This document shows, in pieces, positions 32,177 through 43,347 of a stretch of DNA of 64,000 bases (position 1 is the first letter of the stretch; every line of letters begins with the position of its first letter). The translations under genes and the position numbers were made by a program. Where the stretch lies: the sequence record CP063550.1. One strand, 5' to 3'. The notes below the pieces were generated by a model. It was not told the DNA's origin. It did not search any database and saw only the letters and a list, made by a program, of their open reading frames with translations. Source of the stretch: a plasmid.

Positions 32177-32788
32177 ATGAAGATGAAATTTATTGGATTA
32201 GTAGGAACAAATTCAACGCGGTCAACAAACCGTGAATTATTACAGTTTATGAAAAATTATTTTGTAAATGAGGCAGAAATCGAAATTGTCGAAATCAAGG
32301 AGCTGCCACTATTTAACAAACCTGAAAACACAGAACTACCAAATGTTGTTAAAGAAATTGCTGGAAAAATTGAACAAGCAGATGGCGTAATCATCAGCAC
32401 ACCAGAGTATGACCATGCGGTTCCTGCTTCATTGATTAACGCATTAAATTGGCTTTCATATGGTATTTTTCCGTTTGTGGATAAACCAGTGATGATTACC
32501 GGAGCGTCTTATGGCACGTTAGGTTCTTCACGCGCACAAGCACATTTGCGCCAAATATTGGATTCACCAGAGTTAAAGGCACGAATTATGCCAAGCTCAG
32601 AATTTTTATTGGGTCATTCACTCCAAGCCTTTGATGAGCAAGGACGACTCATTGATGAAGAACAAGTCGCAAAATTACGTGAACTATTCAAAGATTTCTT
32701 ACTCTTTGTCACAATCACTAGTCAATTGCAACATGCGCACCAAGCAAATAAACGTGAAGCCGAAAGCTTTTCATGGGAAACGATTTAA
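32177..32788 (+). CDS. NAD(P)H-dependent FMN reductase (flavodoxin-like fold).
   Basis: About 200 aa with an N-terminal MKFIGLVGTNSTRSTNREL block followed by ...ISTPEYDHAVPASLINALNWLS..., the NADPH-dependent FMN reductase pattern. Confidence 0.65.
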   Translation: MKMKFIGLVGTNSTRSTNRELLQFMKNYFVNEAEIEIVEIKELPLFNKPENTELPNVVKEIAGKIEQADGVIISTPEYDHAVPASLINALNWLSYGIFPFVDKPVMITGASYGTLGSSRAQAHLRQILDSPELKARIMPSSEFLLGHSLQAFDEQGRLIDEEQVAKLRELFKDFLLFVTITSQLQHAHQANKREAESFSWETI

Positions 32789-32807
32789 TCGAGGGGAGCA
32801 AACAAAG

Positions 32808-34028
32808 ATGAAATTAATAGGTATCGTCGGATCAGCAGCTGAACTTTCATATAACCGTAAATTATTAACATTTATCCAAAAACAATATCATGAACTATTT
32901 AATTTAGAAATCATTGAAATCAAAGATTTACCTCTGTTCAATCAAGATGATGATCAAACAAATAGTCCTGCTATTCAACAGCTAAATCGCAAAATCTTAA
33001 TGGCTGATGGGGTAATTATTGCTACGCCAGAACACAATCATACGGTTCCAGCAGGATTGAAAAGTGCACTTGAATGGCTATCATTTAAAATCCATCCACT
33101 TGAAAATAAACCTGTAATGGTTGTGGGTGCTTCTTACTACGATCAAGGAACTTCACGCGCGCAATTACACTTGCGCCAAATTTTGGACGCACCAGGCGTG
33201 AATGCATTAGTGATGCCCGGAAATGAATTTTTATTGGGAAAAGCAAAAGAAGCATTTGACCAAGAAGATCGCTTGATTGATCCACGAACTGTTGACTTTT
33301 TAGGCAGTACATTAGCAAGTTTTGTAAAATTCATTAAAGTCGTGTCTACCTTAGCAGGGCCTAAAAAGCTTCCACCAGAAGATTTGCATGCGACAGGAAC
33401 AATTGCTACGACAATACCCGATGTTGATATGTCAGATGATCATTGGTTGGAAAAAGCTTCTGAAGCAGTCGGTGCCGTTTCTGGAAATACTTACGTCAAA
33501 TTAAATCGTGGGTTATTGACAGTGGATCAAATCAATTACTTTTTAGATTCGATGCCGATGGAATTAACTTTTGCAGATAATAATAACCAATTTTTATATT
33601 ATAATTTGCGCCAAGAAGCGAAAGAGATGTTAGCTGCTCGTGTGCCCGGTCAGGTAGGGAATCCATTAGCCAACTGTCACCCAGAAAAATCGTATAAAAA
33701 TGTAGAGTGGGTAATTCAACAACTGCGAAGCGGAGCAACAGATGCGGTACGTGTTCATGTACCAAAACAAGTGCCAGAAAAATATATTGTGCATAATTAC
33801 CAAGCAATGCATGATGAAAATGGAGAGTATGCTGGAATCAATGAATACATTCTTGATTTCAAACCAATCATTGAGTGGTATTTACAACAAACGGGTCAAC
33901 AACTTGTTGGAAATGAAGATGCGGTTTCAAGTGCATCTGTTCATGGTGGAAAAACAGATGCAGTAACCAGCGCCAGCACACACGATGAAACTGCAGTAGA
34001 TGCAGTTTCGAGTGCTTCTGTAAAATAA
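32808..34028 (+). CDS. Fusion protein: an N-terminal NAD(P)H-dependent FMN reductase domain, a central domain of unknown function, and a C-terminal tail with three tandem D-A-V-[ST]-S-A-S flavinylation-like motifs.
   Basis: The start is placed at MKLIGIVGSAAELSYNRKL (RBS gagggg), because the longer ORF overlaps the previous gene by about 160 nt. Residues 1-190 parallel the 32177 protein. The C-terminus reads ...EDAVSSASVHGGKTDAVTSASTHDETAVDAVSSASVK. Confidence 0.6.
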   Translation: MKLIGIVGSAAELSYNRKLLTFIQKQYHELFNLEIIEIKDLPLFNQDDDQTNSPAIQQLNRKILMADGVIIATPEHNHTVPAGLKSALEWLSFKIHPLENKPVMVVGASYYDQGTSRAQLHLRQILDAPGVNALVMPGNEFLLGKAKEAFDQEDRLIDPRTVDFLGSTLASFVKFIKVVSTLAGPKKLPPEDLHATGTIATTIPDVDMSDDHWLEKASEAVGAVSGNTYVKLNRGLLTVDQINYFLDSMPMELTFADNNNQFLYYNLRQEAKEMLAARVPGQVGNPLANCHPEKSYKNVEWVIQQLRSGATDAVRVHVPKQVPEKYIVHNYQAMHDENGEYAGINEYILDFKPIIEWYLQQTGQQLVGNEDAVSSASVHGGKTDAVTSASTHDETAVDAVSSASVK

Positions 34029-34031
34029 AAA

Positions 34032-34840
34032 GGTTCTGTTGCAAAGTTTTAAATAAAGAATAAAGTCCCTTACGGTATCTATGATTTAAGCTGGGATTCC
34101 CAATAATACCTTGATTTCAGTACAGACCGAAAACCCGAAGAGAGTGCCTTCTTTTCGGGTTTTCTTATATAATCCTCGGATGGCTTCCATGCCTTTAATC
34201 GTGGTAGAGGCAGTGCGTAAACTTCGATAGAATTTATTGCGTCTCTTTACTGGACGATGGTCTTGTTCAATCAAATTATTCAGGTATTTAATGGTACGAT
34301 GTTCTGTCCCTTGATAAAAGCCGTATTCTTTTAGTTTCTTAAAGGCACTTGTAATAGAGGGGGCTTTATCTGTGACTACAACCTTCGGTTCATCAAACTG
34401 CTTCACTAACCGCTTAAGAAAAGCATAGGCTGCTTGTGTGTCCCGTTTTTTACGTAACCAAATATCCAAGGTTAAACCATCTGCATCGATGGCTCGATAC
34501 AAATAATGCCATTTTCCTTTAATTTTGATGTACGTTTCATCCATTTTCCATGAATAAAAGGATTTTTTATTTTTCTTTTTCCAAATTTGATAGAGTAGTT
34601 TGCCATATTCTTGCACCCAACGATAAATCGTCGCATGAGAAACGTTAATGCCACGATCATATAAGATTTCTTGAACTTCACGATAGCTAAGGTTATAACG
34701 AAGATAGTAGCCCACGGCTACAATAATCACATCCTGCTGAAATTGCTTTCCTTTAAAATGATTCATCGTCATTCCTCCTGCTATCTTTTTCTATTATTCT
34801 ACCTTATTTGATAGTAGATTTAAAACTTTGCAACAGAACC
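34032..34840 (-). mobile_element. IS1216-like (IS6 family) copy B with an intact 228-aa transposase (34086-34772).
   Basis: It has the same IRs as copy A, and the transposase is near-identical to the IS1216E type. Confidence 0.85.
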
Positions 34841-35119
34841 AAAGAACTCATCAAGCTGGCTAATAAGGGTCAAGATTATGAACATCTAGCAGATGAGATT
34901 GATGAGCTGAGAGACAAGCGACAGCTCCTTTTAGTAGAAGATGCCTCCCTCAGTGGCGAGAACGAGCGAATCAATGAGCTGATTGAATTTATCCGCAAGA
35001 ACAAATTCCGTACCTTAGAGTACGATGATAAGCTTGTAAGGAAGATAATCCAGAGCGTTACAGTCTATGAAGAACACTTCGTCATATCCTTCAAATCTGG
35101 CATCGAAATGGAAATATGA
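34841..35119 (+). pseudogene. C-terminal fragment of a large serine recombinase, truncated by IS1216 copy B.
   Basis: The remaining ...DELRDKRQLLLVEDASLSG...LEYDDKLVRKIIQSVTVYEEHFVISFKSGIEMEI is the typical coiled-coil/C-terminal tail of large serine recombinases. There is no catalytic domain. Confidence 0.5.
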
Positions 35120-35261
35120 AAACCAGAAGTAAATAGCCCATGATTCTACAGTAGAGTCGTGGGTTTTCTTTTGCTTGCTGATTATAATAATATTTTAATA
35201 ACTATTGTTATTATAAACCAAATGATTTATAATATTCTTAGCGTAAACTTGGAGGTGCTGT

Positions 35262-35483
35262 ATGACTACGGCAGAAATGATTAAAGAACTGTGTGAGCAA
35301 ATGAATATAAGTGTTTCCGAACTTGCTAGACGTATTGGACAGACTCCACAGAATTTCAATAAGAAATTACAACGAGAAACGGTAACCTTAGATGAGTTGA
35401 AAGCGATTGCTGATGTGCTAGGTGTCAAGTTTGTGCAGGCTTTTATATTGCCTGATGGCAATGAAATAAAGATAGGTAATTAG
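35262..35483 (+). CDS. XRE-family helix-turn-helix transcriptional regulator (Cro/CI-like).
   Basis: 73 aa, with the HTH ISVSELARRIGQTPQNFNKKLQ. Confidence 0.65.
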   Translation: MTTAEMIKELCEQMNISVSELARRIGQTPQNFNKKLQRETVTLDELKAIADVLGVKFVQAFILPDGNEIKIGN

Positions 35484-35498
35484 GAGGTGTAATTTGTA

Positions 35499-36341
35499 TT
35501 GAAAATCATAACAATAAATGATGTTGAGTATGCTGTATTTGCTGCTAATGAAGGTACTTCCAAACCACAACCTCATATCATAGAAACGAAATCTGGTACT
35601 ATTCCAGAAGGAAAACAACTGAGTTTATTAAAAGAATATCTTAAGCAGAATGATATTTCCCCAATAAAAGGAGCAACAACATATTGGTGCATTGACAAGG
35701 TTCTTAAGCTTGATTCAAGTAAAGAAAAAACTATAAGTGAAACAATCCATAAACAAAAATACTTATCTTTAACTGAAGAAAATATTGAGAAACAGCATAA
35801 GTTTGTAGGTGCAAGCTCTAATTATGGGAAAGAAGGTCTAATAATACATGATGTTTTGAATGCATTTCCTCTTCATAATGATTTAAATACTATTGCGATG
35901 AAGATTGCGGTAATTGATGTAACAAATTCAACACATCTTTCTCAATATAAGAGCAGGTTGTCTCTATATGATTTGGCTAAAGTAATTCTGGAGATTCCAA
36001 ATTTTGATGATCGGTTGGCAAAAGGAGATCCTCAGTTGATAAATATTATCGCAAGGAACATTGGTGCAGTTAATATGTTCTCATTTGCATCCAAGTACTG
36101 TACATATCATAATGTGGAAGTGTGTGGGAGAGATGATTACTCCATCTTTGATGGTATCGTTAAAAATACTCTTCCACACTATATCCAAGGACTAACTACG
36201 AATAAGATTGATACGTGGCGAAGAAGTTTTGATTACGAGGCATTTAACGAATGTGTTGGAAAACTACTTGATGAAAATAATATACATATTCCTTTTAGAA
36301 GAAGAAAGTTAGATCACTTCTTGTGGTATGCGAATAGGTAG
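35499..36341 (+). CDS. Hypothetical protein of 280 aa with a TTG start and no recognisable domain. Possibly Abi/HEPN-like, unconfirmed.
   Basis: The RBS aggagg lies 11 nt upstream. It is closely coupled to the XRE gene upstream and the exonuclease gene downstream. A C-terminal RRRKLDHFLWY is a weak Rx4-6H-like feature. Confidence 0.4.
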   Translation: MKIITINDVEYAVFAANEGTSKPQPHIIETKSGTIPEGKQLSLLKEYLKQNDISPIKGATTYWCIDKVLKLDSSKEKTISETIHKQKYLSLTEENIEKQHKFVGASSNYGKEGLIIHDVLNAFPLHNDLNTIAMKIAVIDVTNSTHLSQYKSRLSLYDLAKVILEIPNFDDRLAKGDPQLINIIARNIGAVNMFSFASKYCTYHNVEVCGRDDYSIFDGIVKNTLPHYIQGLTTNKIDTWRRSFDYEAFNECVGKLLDENNIHIPFRRRKLDHFLWYANR

Positions 36342-36403
36342 AATATAAGAAAAAGGCATCGTAAAAGTGATTCTGGATAAAATTAATGGGGGAGGAAATA
36401 ATA

Positions 36404-38206
36404 GTGGGATTATTTGATTTTCTAAAGAAAAAACAAGGAAAGGTTAGTAAACACGTTGATTATCAACTGGCTTCTAGTCTATTTCGTACTGGTAAAGTTT
36501 TTGCTGAAAAATTGGAAGTGGACATATCAAATGTAGATGAGTTTCGTAAAACTTTTATCGCTTTTGATGTGGAAACAACTGGCCTAAATTCTTCTTCAGA
36601 TAGAATTGTAGAGATTGGTGCGGTGCTATTTAAAGAAGGAGTTCCAATTCAATCATTCGGAACTCTTGTCAATCCAAAAGTTAGAATTGCAGCCTCAGCT
36701 TCGGCAATAAATAATATAACTAATGAAATGCTAAACTCTGCTCCAAATGAGCAGGAAGTTTACCCCCAGTTGGTAGAATTTTTAGGAGATGCACTAGATG
36801 GAAAAATCACTATGTGTGCACACAATGCAAGTTTCGATTTTGGATTTTTAAGTAACACATTTTCTAGACTTGGGTATGATGCTAAAATTAAGTATGTTGA
36901 TACTCTGAGTCTCTCTAGAAAACATATAAAAGGCATTGTAAATCATAAGCAAGAGACTGTAGCGGAATATTTCGGATTAATAAATGACACTGCCCATAGA
37001 GCGGAATCAGATGCAGATATATGCGGAAAGATTTTTTGGGGTGTTTTAGATATTATTGAGGAGTCGTTGGAAGAACAAAAAAAGCAAATAGAAAAGATGA
37101 CTCCAGACATAAAAGAACTTGAAGCTTGTGCTTTTATTCAAGATATTATTGAGAAAAAAGGATGCGACACCAGTTGGATCAGGTATCGAAAAAACAGTAA
37201 TAATTATGTCGATGTAACTTGTCTATATACATTCTTAAAGTTTAAGTTTGCTAAGAAGGGAAATTACATCATTATTAGAAAAGATGCTACAAATGGAATT
37301 GATTTACCTATAGAACCTTGTACTGTAAGTGAAGGCGGTACAACAAATGTGCGAGTCTATTTTCGTAGCCCCTTTGACTTAACGCCTCTTTCAAATTATA
37401 TTTTCAGTGCTTATAGCGATTGTTATAATTCTATGAATGAATATATGAGTGTTAGTAATTACACTAAAAAAGAAGCAGAGCAAAGCCTTAGTATGCTGAA
37501 ATCTATTTCAAAATCAGCGATGAAAGAGTTATTATTCGATGCAAAAAATCGTGGATATGATGAGACTGAAGTTAACCTAAATATTGAAAAAGTGATATCT
37601 AGAGAAGATGTAATTATTAACGGGTTGCATAATCGAGTTTCATTAAACAAGATACGAAATATAGGGAATTGGGAGAAAGGATTTGATGCAGGTTATCCAT
37701 ATTGGGAACGTGGAGAAACTGCTAGGAAAAATGGCAAAGTAGATGAAGCTATTGCACTTTTTGATAAAGCTCGATATAACGGCTATGATGCTCCTGCGCT
37801 ATATGATTCTTATGCTAAAGCTTATCGAAAAATTAAGGATTACGATAATGAAATTCTCATTCTTGATGAAGGAATTATGCGTAAAACACGGCACGATGTT
37901 GGTACTTTAGAGGCTCGTAGGGATAAGGCAATTAAGCTATTATTTGCTAAACAAGAGGCAGAGCGGATAGCTAAGGAAAAATCTGATTTTCTAAAAGCGA
38001 ACAAAAAAGAGGATGCGATTAGTGAGCCTAGCAAGAAGCGTGGAAGACAGATTATTCAAATGACTGATGATGGAACAATAATAAAAGAATTCGATACTAT
38101 AGCTTCTGCTGTAAAAGAAGTTGGCGTTAACTCAAAAAGTATTAGGGATGCTGCAAATGGAGTTCAAAAACATGCTGGAGGATACTACTGGAAATACAAA
38201 GATTAG
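36404..38206 (+). CDS. DEDDh (DnaQ-like) 3'-5' exonuclease domain fused to a roughly 370-aa helical extension and a C-terminal NUMOD1-like DNA-binding motif.
   Basis: The exonuclease motifs are FDVETTGL (Exo I), HNASFDFGFL (Exo II) and HRAESDADI (Exo III, DEDDh). The C-terminus QIIQMTDDGTIIKEFDTIASAVKEVGVNSKSIRDAANGVQKHAGGYYWKY matches the NUMOD1 pattern of homing-endonuclease DNA-binding modules. GTG start with RBS gggggagg. Confidence 0.6.
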   Translation: MGLFDFLKKKQGKVSKHVDYQLASSLFRTGKVFAEKLEVDISNVDEFRKTFIAFDVETTGLNSSSDRIVEIGAVLFKEGVPIQSFGTLVNPKVRIAASASAINNITNEMLNSAPNEQEVYPQLVEFLGDALDGKITMCAHNASFDFGFLSNTFSRLGYDAKIKYVDTLSLSRKHIKGIVNHKQETVAEYFGLINDTAHRAESDADICGKIFWGVLDIIEESLEEQKKQIEKMTPDIKELEACAFIQDIIEKKGCDTSWIRYRKNSNNYVDVTCLYTFLKFKFAKKGNYIIIRKDATNGIDLPIEPCTVSEGGTTNVRVYFRSPFDLTPLSNYIFSAYSDCYNSMNEYMSVSNYTKKEAEQSLSMLKSISKSAMKELLFDAKNRGYDETEVNLNIEKVISREDVIINGLHNRVSLNKIRNIGNWEKGFDAGYPYWERGETARKNGKVDEAIALFDKARYNGYDAPALYDSYAKAYRKIKDYDNEILILDEGIMRKTRHDVGTLEARRDKAIKLLFAKQEAERIAKEKSDFLKANKKEDAISEPSKKRGRQIIQMTDDGTIIKEFDTIASAVKEVGVNSKSIRDAANGVQKHAGGYYWKYKD

Positions 38207-38244
38207 CAGATAATCTAAGATAACCTAGGATCTTCTTAATAGAT

Positions 38245-39284
38245 ACCCGTGGTGCTAGTTAATTTTAATATCCTAAAGAATATCTCAAAGTTCCTTCAAA
38301 ACGTCGTTGTGCTCGACTTAATAGAACACTGTAAGCCAGTAATATGCTTTCAAATCTACTCTCTAGCCCTTTAACAGAACGTGAGTTGAAATTTTGACAA
38401 CCTAATTTTTCTAAGGAAGAAAAAACAGTCCCAACTGTTTTTCTTTGTTTTCCAAGTAAGCTGTGGTCTAGTTTTTCTGATTTATCCATGTTTTTACGTG
38501 GCGGAATGGATATAGTAATGCCCATAAGGGCAAGCTTTTCATGGATTTTATGGCTAATATATCCTTTGTCCCCTAGGATATTGGGAAGATTCGCTTCTTC
38601 CGATAAAGTCTCTAACACTTTCACGTCATGGACACCTGGATTCGTGATTGAGTAAGTAATCGGAAAGCCAGTCTTAGTAACGATCATATGAATTTTAAGA
38701 CCATAAAAATAAGATTTTTTTGTTGAGTTATAGCCAACTTTGGCTATTTGATTCAATAGTTTTGCTTGTCTATTTCTAACTGGTTTACATAATGGACTAG
38801 GAAAACTATCTATAATTCCGACTAGTTCACCTTTGGTGAGCTTCTTGATGAAAAAGTATCGAATAATCTTGATAGTGTAAGCTAAGTTTGAACTTAAGCG
38901 AGTGAATCGACTCCTACTAGGAAAGTCACCATTAGGAAATAAGACGGAACAAACCGCTCTATACGTGGCTCTTTGGCTAGTATAGCCATTAATTATGCCC
39001 CATATAACACAAGCAATAATCACTGTATCGCGTTGCTTCAGTTGATCAGTATTTCTTCGGTTTTTAATCTTATCTGGTACACAATTGTGGTATATGTTAG
39101 AAACAGTTCTCATAATTTCCTTGAATGTTATAAAAGTATCTGTATAATGTTCAGTATATTTTGATGAACGCATATGTAGTCCTCATTTCTTGGGAGTTTT
39201 GAGACTACTATATGCGTTTTTTTGTTGATTTACCAACATGTTTAGACATTTTCCTCTAGGAAAAAATTAACTAGCACCACGGGT
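38245..39284 (-). mobile_element. IS982-family-like insertion sequence, copy 2 (transposase 38265-39173), inverted relative to copy 1.
   Basis: Same IRs as copy 1. The transposase differs by a few residues (K to M, I to V, ET to GT, FF to FS). Confidence 0.7.
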
Positions 39285-39633: not shown

Positions 39634-40686
39634 GATTGTAAAATTAAGCTAGACAACTAAAAAAGTCATTTGTGCTACACTCAAAATAGTTCCGACCAAA
39701 GAATTATAAGGAGTGAGTACAAATGACCTATACCCATCTTACAACGGATGAACTTGTAATAATAGAGTCTTATTTCAAAATTAATCAATCTGTTGCTAAA
39801 ACTGCCCATTGCTTGAATCGTTCAAGACAAACGATCCATAAAGTATATCTGTTCTTCAAGCAAGGAAAATCAGCCTTAGAATATTATCAACAGTATAAGA
39901 AAAACAAATCAAACTGTGGTAGACGTCCGCTTGTTTTACCCGAGGAACAATCAGAATATATTCAAAGAAAGGTTGTTCAAGGATGGACACCCGATGTGAT
40001 TGTTGGTCGTGCAGCGTTTCCTATTAGTTGTTCTGCTCGTACCATTTATCGTATGTTCAAAAAGGGGCTATTTGATTCTTCTGACTTACCGATGAAAGGC
40101 AAGCGTAAACCGAATGGACATCAAGAAAGACGTGGAAAACAAACTTTCCGCCGCTCTATTCATGAACGTGAAAAGGATTATAGCCAATTCTCAAATGAGT
40201 TTGGTCACCTTGAAGGTGACACTATCGTAGGTCTGAAACATAAAAGTGCTGTAATTACCTTAGTTGAACGATTATCAAAAGTTATCATCACATTGAAACC
40301 GTGTGGTAGACAAGCGATTGATATTGAAAAAAATTAAATCAATGGTTTGAATCTGTACCGAAAAACCTATTCAAATCCATCACTTTTGATTGTGGAAAGG
40401 AATTTTCAAATTGGAAACAGATCAGTAATGTCAATGATATTGCCATTTATTTCGCTGATCCAGGAACGCCGTCTCAAAGAGGCCTAAACGAGAATTCTAA
40501 CGGATTGTTACGTAGAGATGGTTTATTGAAATCTATGGATTTCAATTCAGTAGATGAATTTTTTATTCAATCTGTCGCATCTAAACGAAATAATATTCCT
40601 AGAAAATCACTGGATTATCGAACACCTTTGGAAGTATTTTTGAGTTACGTAAGTATTGATGATCTGTCTAACTTAATTTGACAATT
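39634..40686 (+). mobile_element. IS30-family insertion sequence. The transposase is frameshifted: 39723-40337 plus the continuation to about 40680 in another frame.
   Basis: The N-terminal HTH and GHLEGDTIVG (DDE start) are in frame 1. FADPGTPSQRGLNENSNGLLRR (IS30 C-terminal signature) is in frame 2. The terminal IRs are cgattgtaaaattaagctagac and gtctaacttaatttgacaat. Confidence 0.65.
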
Positions 40687-42005: not shown

Positions 42006-43347
42006 TGGGGTACATGGAACATAGAAACGAAAATGCACGGTAGAAAAGCGAATGAATATAGTATAAATTCTACAAATCATTCGCTTTCTTTATTTTATAT
42101 ATGGTTGGTCGAGAGAGACCATTTTCTTTGGCAATTTCTGCAACTGGAACTCCTTGATTTAACATGTCCACCACAGTTTTAAAGACTAATCGTTTTTGCG
42201 GATCTGTTGAGTTCTCAGAATATTCAATTGGTCGCCCCTTATATCGACCAGCTTTTTTGGCCAATAATACTCCTTGCCGCTGACGTTCACGGATTTTCTC
42301 ACGTTCGTTTTGTGCAATATAACTTAGCAATGATAAAAACATATCGAACATAGCAGTATCTAGGAGTTCATTTCCAGTATTAAAATCTAAAAACTGTGCA
42401 TCTAGTATTTTTAATGCTACTTTTTTCTGTTTCATAAAGGTAACTGTATTTTTTATGTCTTCATAATCTCTGCCTAGGCGATCCAGTGATGCAACAATGA
42501 CACAATCACCTTCTCGGATATAATTTAGTAATTTTTGAAACTCAGGTCGCTGGATATCTTTACCACTGGCTTTTTCTTGGAATAATTTATCAATGTTAAG
42601 GTCTTCCATCATTGCCAATTGTCGATCTAAATTTTGATCTTGTGAAGACACTCTAATATATCCAATTTTTGCCATAAAAACTCCTTTTAAAAAATGATAT
42701 AATTTACATGTAAAATTTACTTGTAGTTTTACTGTTATCATAGCATTTTTAAAAATAAATTTTAAGTCTACTTATAATTTACTTTGGAGGTTTTGAATGA
42801 ATGAAATTAAGCGCAATAAAAATTCTTTTGGTGTTTATTTAGGAGAGCCTAGCTCGGAACAGTTAAATAAAGGTGAAGCTCGTCATGCTCTATGTCGAAA
42901 TATATTTTATGGTAGAAAAGGCAAACTTTATCAAACTTATTACGACGGTATGGAGGAACAGCTCAACGCATTAGGATTAGTAACTAATGCTATCATATAT
43001 TGGAATTCACTATATTTAGAAAAAGTCTTTGAACAAATTAAAACGGAAGGGTTCGACTGTTCCGAAGAAGTGTTACGCAAGCAATTTCCATTAATTAGTG
43101 ATCACATTAATTTTGTTGGCAAATATAGTTTCCGCTATGAAAAAGAATTATCGAATGGAATACTACGTCCGTTAAATATAGAGAATTATTGAGAATGTTC
43201 GTCTTTTGGTTCCTACCGTGCATTTTCGCACGGATGTTCCAGATACTATTTTTGAATGTATAAAATTGAAAACACAAGAATACTAATAAATCAACGATTC
43301 TTGTGTTTTTAATTTTTCACTACCGTGCATTTTCGTTTCTATGTTCC
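42006..43347 (-). mobile_element. Tn3-family remnant with 38-bp terminal IRs, a resolvase gene (42070-42678, minus strand), a res-like palindrome and a 131-aa transposase C-terminal fragment (42797-43192, plus strand).
   Basis: The IR GGGGTACATGGAACATAGAAACGAAAATGCACGGTAG lies at 42006-42043, with its inverted copy at 43309-43347 and a degenerate third copy at 43215-43250. The resolvase has the N-terminal IGYIRVSSQDQNLDRQ catalytic serine motif. The TnpA fragment has the ...LVTNAIIYWNSLYL...ISDHINFVGKYSF Tn3-TnpA C-terminal signature. Confidence 0.7.

Follow-up and report, generated by a model that had tools for sequence, protein, structure and literature searches.

The window analysed here is a 64,000-nucleotide (nt) stretch of sequence record CP063550.1, which belongs to a pLG1-type megaplasmid of Enterococcus faecium. 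Between IS1216 and ISEfm1 it carries three co-directional open reading frames (ORFs) on the plus strand: a small helix-turn-helix (HTH) regulator and two larger genes, here called gene 2 and gene 3 (Table 1). An earlier reading of the letters (the original prediction) took the three for a single novel anti-phage or abortive-infection (Abi) module, made of an XRE switch, a possibly HEPN/Abi-like partner and an exonuclease with a NUMOD1-like tail. ORFs and RefSeq annotation confirm its gene coordinates and its flanks, a serine recombinase remnant and an IS982-family copy, and its placing of the genes as mobile-element cargo stands as well. The single module does not. We lean instead towards a fragment of an HTH-led element backbone that carries two independently mobile, stand-alone genes of defence type, a glycosylase and an exonuclease.

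Many E. faecium plasmids, 190-300 kb in size, match positions 34700-38300 of the window at 100% identity; at least 80% of the segment is present in about 90 plasmid records. As originally noted, its GC content is lower than that of the adjacent metabolic genes, although only slightly (33-34.5% versus about 36-40%). From 34841 onwards the DNA of the recombinase remnant matches, at 95-96% identity, the 3' ends of recombinase genes that are still intact in Javan630 (a Streptococcus 'prophage' record) and in Caproicibacterium; a Pfam scan finds no domain left in it. The insertion of IS1216 cut this gene short and is the left edge of the captured fragment. The 3.4-kb segment caught between IS1216 and ISEfm1 is a piece of a mobile element with a large serine recombinase, and in it a backbone part (recombinase 3' end, terminator, promoter with inverted repeat and small Cro/C1-type HTH regulator) is followed by a cargo part. 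An Rfam scan of the window returned no RNA family.

Table 1 Features of the captured segment and its edges, in window coordinates (aa, amino acids)
Feature	Position	Strand	Basis
IS1216 (IS6 family) transposase	34086-34772	-	DDE_Tnp_IS240 8.8e-42; RefSeq annotation of an identical plasmid
Large serine recombinase remnant, C-terminal 103 aa (element backbone)	34808-35119	+	DNA identity
Terminator-like hairpin after the recombinase remnant	35135-35165	+	14-bp stem, then T-run
Best promoter-like site, TTGTTA-17-TATAAT	35205-35233	+	Consensus match only
12-nt inverted repeat overlapping the promoter-like site	35209-35234	+	Sequence
Cro/C1-type HTH regulator, 73 aa	35262-35483	+	HTH_26 3.8e-14, 53 bits versus cut-off 22
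Gene 2, 280 aa, TTG start (same start in RefSeq)	35499-36341	+	ORF
Gene 2 N-terminal domain, residues 1-75: small beta-sheet and two helices	35499-35723	+	AlphaFold (AF2) model
Gene 2 core, residues ~88-280: PF27257 HI_0787_N, helix-hairpin-helix DNA-glycosylase-like	35760-36341	+	
Gene 3, 600 aa from GTG 36404 (ORF open from ATG 36386)	36404-38206	+	ORF
Gene 3 DEDDh 3'-5' exonuclease domain, residues ~50-230	36533-37075	+	PF00929, 102 bits versus cut-off 24
Gene 3 middle alpha/beta domain, residues ~240-400	37103-37585	+	NF005289 over 55-364; phrog_14632 over 49-349
Gene 3 TPR-like helical repeat, residues ~429-542	37670-38011	+	
Gene 3 C-terminal I-HmuI/NUMOD-like DNA-binding tail, residues ~553-606	38042-38206	+	Profile matches
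ISEfm1 (IS982 family) transposase, right edge of captured fragment	38265-39173	-	DDE_Tnp_1 9e-22; RefSeq

Gene 2 had been described as lacking a recognisable domain. It gives no match in the Pfam, NCBIfam, PADLOC or PHROGs libraries that we searched, the Pfam copy being one without PF27257; a large protein database, however, records a precomputed match to PF27257 (HI_0787_N) for the identical protein and for all listed homologues. Nothing on HI_0787 was found in the literature. An exhaustive search collected relatives in 615 clusters at 50% identity. Most of them match residues ~85-280 alone, and the N-terminal ~75 residues of gene 2 are therefore a variable add-on. At two loci of our collection (L128 and L129; loci are numbered in this manner throughout), DNA-level similarity to gene 2 is confined to the core.

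In the AlphaFold model of gene 2 (pLDDT 93.7), the core has a helix-hairpin-helix (HhH) DNA-glycosylase-like fold. The ten best Foldseek matches include Tm1821, MagIII, hOGG1 and a Clostridium Ogg, none of which reaches an E value of 0.001, and no sequence-profile match to HhH-GPD (PF00730) or to a solved glycosylase was found in Pfam, NCBIfam or the PDB. In an alignment of 50 sequences, residues K135, K199, H204 and D218 are invariant and D212, D272 and W276 nearly so; the conserved motifs read FSFASKYCxYHN, DDYSI(F/Y)D and D-x3-W. K199 precedes D218 by 19 residues. This is the spacing of the catalytic lysine and aspartate in bifunctional HhH glycosylase/lyases (K249/D268 in hOGG1, K120/D138 in EndoIII). 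Gene 2 is probably a divergent HhH DNA glycosylase, predicted to be bifunctional with K199 as the nucleophile and D218 as its partner. Its suggested HEPN/Abi-like nature, based on a weak 'Rx5H', is rejected: H273 lies outside the conserved columns, in contrast to its neighbours D272 and W276, and the fold is that of a glycosylase.

Gene 2 invites comparison with the Dag proteins, small glycosylases of the HhH superfamily that are unrecognisable by sequence, are borne by integrons and mobile elements, and defend against phages whose DNA carries 7-deazaguanine modifications (Getz et al., bioRxiv 10.1101/2025.10.29.685425). Dag1 alone suffices for defence and fragments modified DNA; it appears to be bifunctional and requires K118, D184 and W188, with a contribution from D132, while housekeeping glycosylases, which are core-genome genes, gave no defence (same reference). 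The core of gene 2 likewise spans ~190 aa, has the HhH fold, shows no sequence-profile link to known glycosylases and is found in mobile, AT-rich, defence-rich DNA. Set against the published residues of Dag1, K118, D132 and D184-x3-W188 have counterparts in K199, D212 and D272-x3-W276 of gene 2, the spacings being 13 residues in gene 2 versus 14 in Dag1 for the first interval, 73 versus 66 for the lysine to the second aspartate, and x3 in both. This likeness is suggestive, not proof. Gene 2 differs from Dag in coming from Firmicutes, not from Vibrio integrons, and in its extra variable N-terminal domain. The Dag supplementary tables, which give locus tags only, hold no motif or accession match to gene 2 among the rows listed.

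The 8-oxoguanine DNA glycosylase/AP lyases of the Ogg2/AGOG type (Tm1821, Pa-AGOG) are only 11-19% identical to gene 2, which, unlike them, is not a core-genome gene and is located in defence islands and mobile elements. Brig1 and Brig3 share with it the concept of immunity by base excision from modified phage DNA; they fall within the UDG superfamily (uracil-DNA glycosylases), not the HhH one, and their target is a modified cytosine. Brig3 is encoded in an operon with an accessory gene, BapA, which is a glucosyl hydrolase, whereas the gene beside gene 2 encodes an exonuclease. Concerning enterococcal phages with modified bases as a target of gene 2, no supporting paper was present among the best-ranked literature results.

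Gene 3 likely starts at GTG 36404, because the ribosome-binding site GGGGGAGG lies upstream (36389-36396), RefSeq makes the same call and homologues begin with MGLFDF; residue numbers below follow the 606-aa numbering. The protein is an intact DEDDh exonuclease of the PolC/DnaQ type and, as originally stated, not a housekeeping architecture. Its exonuclease domain has the RNase H-like exonuclease fold. Residues D61 and E63 (Exo I, D-x-E), D151 (Exo II), and H204 and D209 (Exo III, H-x4-D) are invariant in 43 homologues, which upholds the earlier call of a complete DnaQ-like enzyme. By sequence, the domain is nearest to the proofreading exonuclease of PolC (E value 4.8e-36), followed by DnaQ and DinG.

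The C-terminal tail, first described as NUMOD1-like, does look I-HmuI/NUMOD-like, though its PF22083 match (5.4e-5) stays under the Pfam gathering threshold (23.1 versus 27 bits). It also matches the PADLOC HEase model (4.3e-9) and phrog_20162, an HNH-endonuclease tail (2.5e-5), and several gene 3 homologues have precomputed PF22083 matches. Residues I586, R587, A589, A590, G592, Q594, G598 and W602 are invariant in it, and its ~55 residues as a whole nearly so. More than 1,000 matches and dozens of full-length relatives at 50-75% identity show that the full architecture is widespread. Ten prophage-like contigs (L098-L107) encode a 430-aa variant with no middle domain; other variants are TPR-less or join a divergent exonuclease to the same tail. 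As either the middle domain or the TPR block can be dropped, exonuclease and tail constitute the selected core, and the combination of a PolC/DnaQ-like site with a DNA-binding tail suggests a DNA substrate.

The exonuclease and middle domains of gene 3 are common to NF005289/PRK06807 ('3'-5' exonuclease'; residues 55-364 against 8-307 of 313) and to phrog_14632. The latter, labelled 'DNA polymerase III epsilon' in clostridial prophages, occupies the prophage end in Clostridium tetani phages, as relatives of gene 3 do. These proteins are devoid of the TPR block and of the NUMOD-like tail; gene 3 is twice as long and scores below the NF005289 equivalog cut-off (191.9 versus 335 bits). Among proteins from defence contexts, the PADLOC candidate PDC-S48, Cap18 of CBASS and the TONDO/ISG20-like enzymes are also DEDDh exonucleases, often with an auxiliary domain. 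PADLOC yields domain-level matches only: the PDC-S48 models align with the exonuclease domain alone, at positions 4-170 of a 411-position model and 14-172 of a 512-position one. TONDOs are RNA exonucleases of less than 500 aa from a different DEDDh clade, in contrast to the PolC/DnaQ-like gene 3 with its DNA-binding tail. The last 50-65 aa of gene 3 match the I-HmuI/NUMOD tails of HNH and GIY-YIG homing endonucleases, here attached to an exonuclease instead of an endonuclease catalytic domain and with no sign of intron or intein association.

Relatives of gene 3 either lie directly inward of a serine recombinase or have mobilisation genes nearby. Among their neighbours are a Gabija-like OLD/TOPRIM and UvrD pair, AAA_21 with RloB, AbiEi/AbiEii and an AAA_13 gene, and the genes on both the upstream and the downstream side vary. 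Gene 2 relatives at 75-77% identity occur in other settings: inside a Tn916-like element, behind SIR2 and LmuB (Lamassu-type) plus NOV_C genes (L009), between the HTH gene and a gene resembling GmrSD (L011), beside transposases of the IS21/Mu type (L142), and three genes away from the HTH gene (L128). Both genes accompany known anti-phage genes, and their folds, conserved catalytic residues and genomic company indicate that they are probably defence genes themselves. To this extent the earlier proposal of a defence role stands; it fails on the module and overstates the novelty, since both HhH glycosylases (Dag) and DEDDh exonucleases with roles in defence were known before.

Three further arrangements were seen around the two families. 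AAA_13 ATPase genes (~760-800 aa) lie directly upstream of the gene 3 relative in L004-L007 (5456-7855 in L004) and of the gene 2 relative in L083 (5335-7623). In nine loci of Mollicutes and Bacilli (L030, L031, L035, L041, L047, L049, L051, L066 and L077), the gene at +1 of the PF27257 gene encodes a ~253-aa LEM-3-like GIY-YIG nuclease, located in most of them 2-110 nt past it (e.g. 8612-9373 in L035); it is possible that the two form a conserved unit. Finally, in a Treponemataceae locus (L017, 4327-11556), a gene 2 relative of 50% identity overlaps the end of a 1225-aa DUF6079 gene by 4 nt and is followed 13 nt further 3' by an 889-aa DNA methylase, and so appears to be part of a larger, methylase-containing operon of defence type.

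Could genes 2 and 3 rather serve the DNA metabolism of the element or its host, as a glycosylase for repair and an exonuclease for proofreading or processing that assist replication, transfer or integration? The closeness of the exonuclease to proofreading domains of PolC, epsilon and DinG would fit, as would the labels of its relatives in PHROGs and RefSeq (DNA polymerase or exonuclease subunits) and the repair-enzyme fold of gene 2. We nevertheless judge it decidedly unlikely. Neither gene resides in a replication or conjugation module, the neighbourhoods are hypervariable and rich in defence genes, housekeeping glycosylases are core-genome genes that gave no defence, and the variable N-terminal domain of gene 2 together with allele exchange fits an arms race. 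Specifically, gene 3 was considered as a phage replisome subunit and rejected: no full-length relative exists in 50,697 phage genomes, and its relatives, found at prophage ends, adjoin recombinases at element ends and defence genes. The original prediction had named homology to conserved prophage replication or recombination genes, for instance a proofreading subunit of a phage replisome, as what would speak against a defence role; as neither gene is a component of a phage replisome, this objection falls away.

Genes on plasmids, elements resembling integrative and conjugative elements, and prophage ends could also act in counter-defence or in competition between elements, degrading the DNA of rivals or the nucleic-acid signals of defence; DEDDh enzymes such as Cap18 do act on such signals or on accessory substrates in defence pathways. 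We hold this to be very unlikely, given that there is no similarity to known anti-defence families, that a DNA-binding tail and a PolC-like active site are what one would expect for long DNA substrates, and that both genes are co-located with defence systems and not with leading-region anti-defence genes.

The HTH gene that precedes them is not specific to genes 2 and 3. Copies of it (87-97% identical) stand ahead of unrelated cargo elsewhere, including genes for antibiotic resistance, metal resistance and toxin/immunity. Javan630 matches the window at 95% DNA identity over 34841-35474, i.e. the recombinase 3' end and the HTH gene, whose product is 97% identical; the next gene encodes an unrelated 289-aa protein and is followed by the aadE/apt/spw resistance genes. 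(That protein was weighed as a gene 2 homologue and ruled out, with a BLASTP E value of 0.034 over 25 residues.) In Caproicibacterium, the HTH gene and genes 2 and 3 come after three serine recombinase genes, and 5 kb onward a second HTH copy (94.5% identical) heads a SUKH/Tox-GHH pair. In Vagococcus fluvialis, one copy heads a Crp/P-type ATPase/HMA cassette and another heads genes 2 and 3. Across these elements the 364-nt stretch of promoter and HTH gene (35120-35483) is 88-93% identical ahead of differing cargo. Because unrelated cassettes share it, the HTH gene with its promoter is a generic cassette leader or regulator belonging to the backbone, and not the dedicated XRE switch first proposed.

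The promoter-like site and the overlapping inverted repeat (35205-35234) form a putative autoregulated cassette promoter and operator. No terminator-like site is present in the window sequence between the HTH gene, gene 2 and gene 3, and it is plausible that the cargo is co-transcribed from the promoter of the HTH gene. We also noticed that the same ~73-aa HTH gene with 140 nt of upstream sequence occurs twice per element in L008 (7764-7985 and 12818-13042) and L139 (1683-1907 and 5764-5994), and that the block of cargo behind it differs from copy to copy (defence-type genes, SUKH/Tox-GHH, metal resistance). These paired copies suggest either HTH-led cassette organisation or tandem accretion in serine-recombinase elements.

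We assembled 80 loci from different species, each with a gene 2 relative, and searched for a gene 3 relative within 8 kb. Only two of them have one, and both are copies of one element, more than 90% identical. Conversely, a gene 2 relative is found at none of six divergent gene 3 loci and in none of 15 viral contigs, even with a hidden Markov model (HMM). Two neighbours of gene 3 relatives were examined as a hidden gene 2 (186 aa in L093, 228 aa in L090) and discarded, having neither an HMM nor a Pfam match. Likewise, there is no conserved gene 3' of gene 3 that ISEfm1 would have cut, as the ~340-aa proteins found there in L003 and L008 are unrelated. The trio being confined to one element, a conserved three-gene system is rejected.

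These counts also bear on the abortive-infection module as first conceived, with an XRE switch, a HEPN/Abi-like gene 2 and an exonuclease effector. The genes are co-directional and tightly spaced, probably with one promoter, and some defence systems do have XRE regulators (PADLOC gives weak HTH matches, e.g. capH at 0.012). Yet the HTH gene and promoter also head unrelated cassettes, the fold of gene 2 is glycosylase-like and not HEPN, its putative histidine is unconserved, and the trio is restricted to a single element. Of all the readings considered, we find this one the least credible.

Further observations show the segment to be a mosaic. Homology between elements at the DNA level ends at gene borders. 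Gene 3 and the spacer in Vagococcus and L015 match the window at 99-100% identity, against 89% for gene 2; genes 2 and 3 therefore have different histories even when adjacent. In Granulicatella, the HTH gene runs straight into an intact gene 3 (75% identical), with ~25 nt resembling the end of gene 2 left between them, which suggests that gene 2 was deleted and gene 3 kept. As far as co-occurrence tells, genes 2 and 3 do not form a fixed system; that they are adjacent here is peculiar to one element of recent spread.

An alternative is that the two products cooperate in an 'excise and resect' reaction: the glycosylase/lyase would take a modified base out of phage DNA and leave a nick with a blocked 3' end, from which the tethered 3'-5' exonuclease would degrade the strand, nucleases being interchangeable partners. 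A bifunctional glycosylase nick of this kind is a natural entry point for such an exonuclease, and Brig3-BapA offers a precedent for a defence glycosylase with a helper. Genes 2 and 3 run in the same direction at a distance of 44-62 nt, and no terminator lies between them. The pair is kept in Enterococcus, Vagococcus, Caproicibacterium and Clostridiales despite different gene 2 alleles (89% versus 96%) beside the same gene 3, and the apparent deletion scar in Granulicatella would date the arrangement to before the 95% clade. Elsewhere in the gene 2 family, too, a nuclease gene closely follows or precedes: the GIY-YIG enzyme at +1 in nine loci, GmrSD in two (L011 and L046) and PD-(D/E)XK in three. 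By extension, PF27257 immunity could be modular, a glycosylase with a swappable nuclease (DEDDh-TPR-NUMOD here, GIY-YIG in Mollicutes and Bacilli, GmrSD or PD-(D/E)XK elsewhere), in other words base-excision repair rewired against viruses; we regard this as doubtful. Cooperation of genes 2 and 3 themselves is also rather unlikely, as 78 of the 80 species-level gene 2 loci are without gene 3 and most are without any nuclease partner, every divergent gene 3 relative is without gene 2, gene 3 is still intact in Granulicatella although gene 2 was apparently lost there, and horizontal transfer of one element explains the spread of the pair across genera. Moreover, Dag1 alone is sufficient for defence and DNA fragmentation.

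Under the reading that we favour, with two stand-alone cargo genes behind an HTH-led backbone, both would probably be read from the backbone promoter. By analogy with the Dag glycosylases, the product of gene 2 would cut a non-canonical base out of the DNA of an invading phage and nick the strand. The product of gene 3 would be a 3'-5' DNA exonuclease of the DnaQ/PolC type, held on DNA by its homing-endonuclease-type tail and degrading foreign DNA from 3' ends or nicks; its TPR block probably serves regulation or partner binding. Gene structures, folds, conserved catalytic residues, mosaicism, separability and neighbourhoods rich in defence genes are observed here; enzymatic activities, substrate, anti-phage role and co-transcription are inferred.

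Megaplasmids of the pLG1 type circulate in hospital lineages of E. faecium, and phage therapy is being pursued against vancomycin-resistant enterococci; on these clinically relevant plasmids, genes 2 and 3 are two candidates open to testing. Should gene 2 prove to be a working Dag-like glycosylase, it would extend glycosylase immunity from Vibrio integrons and soil metagenomes to Gram-positive pathogens and would give a function to a Pfam family with at least 615 clusters of sequences. The exonuclease-TPR-NUMOD family that gene 3 defines is widespread and uncharacterised, with more than 1,000 relatives, and its repeated position beside Gabija-, AbiE- and RloB-type systems makes it a good candidate for a new single-gene defence. 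More generally, HTH-led cassettes in serine-recombinase elements can make unrelated cargo mimic a system encoded by one operon.

Some features of the surrounding plasmid were noted in passing. Immediately left of IS1216, an annotated NAD(P)H-dependent oxidoreductase (32631-34028) is grouped with a flavin mononucleotide (FMN) transferase and an FMN reductase and has a short repeated Ser/Ala-rich C-terminal tail, AVSSASVHGGKTDAVTSASTHDETAVDAVSSASVK. To the right of the segment, an IS30-family transposase (39723-40682) is frameshifted near codon 204 with respect to an intact 320-codon copy on plasmid NZ_CP025426, reading …DIEKN* where the intact copy has …DIEKKLNQW…; either the gene is a pseudogene or the frameshift is a sequencing error in a homopolymer. 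A few kilobases right of the segment follow a small serine recombinase/resolvase (42070-42741, minus strand) and a fragment resembling the C-terminus of a Tn3-family transposase (42797-43192, plus strand), which mark this stretch of the plasmid as rich in insertion sequences and transposons.

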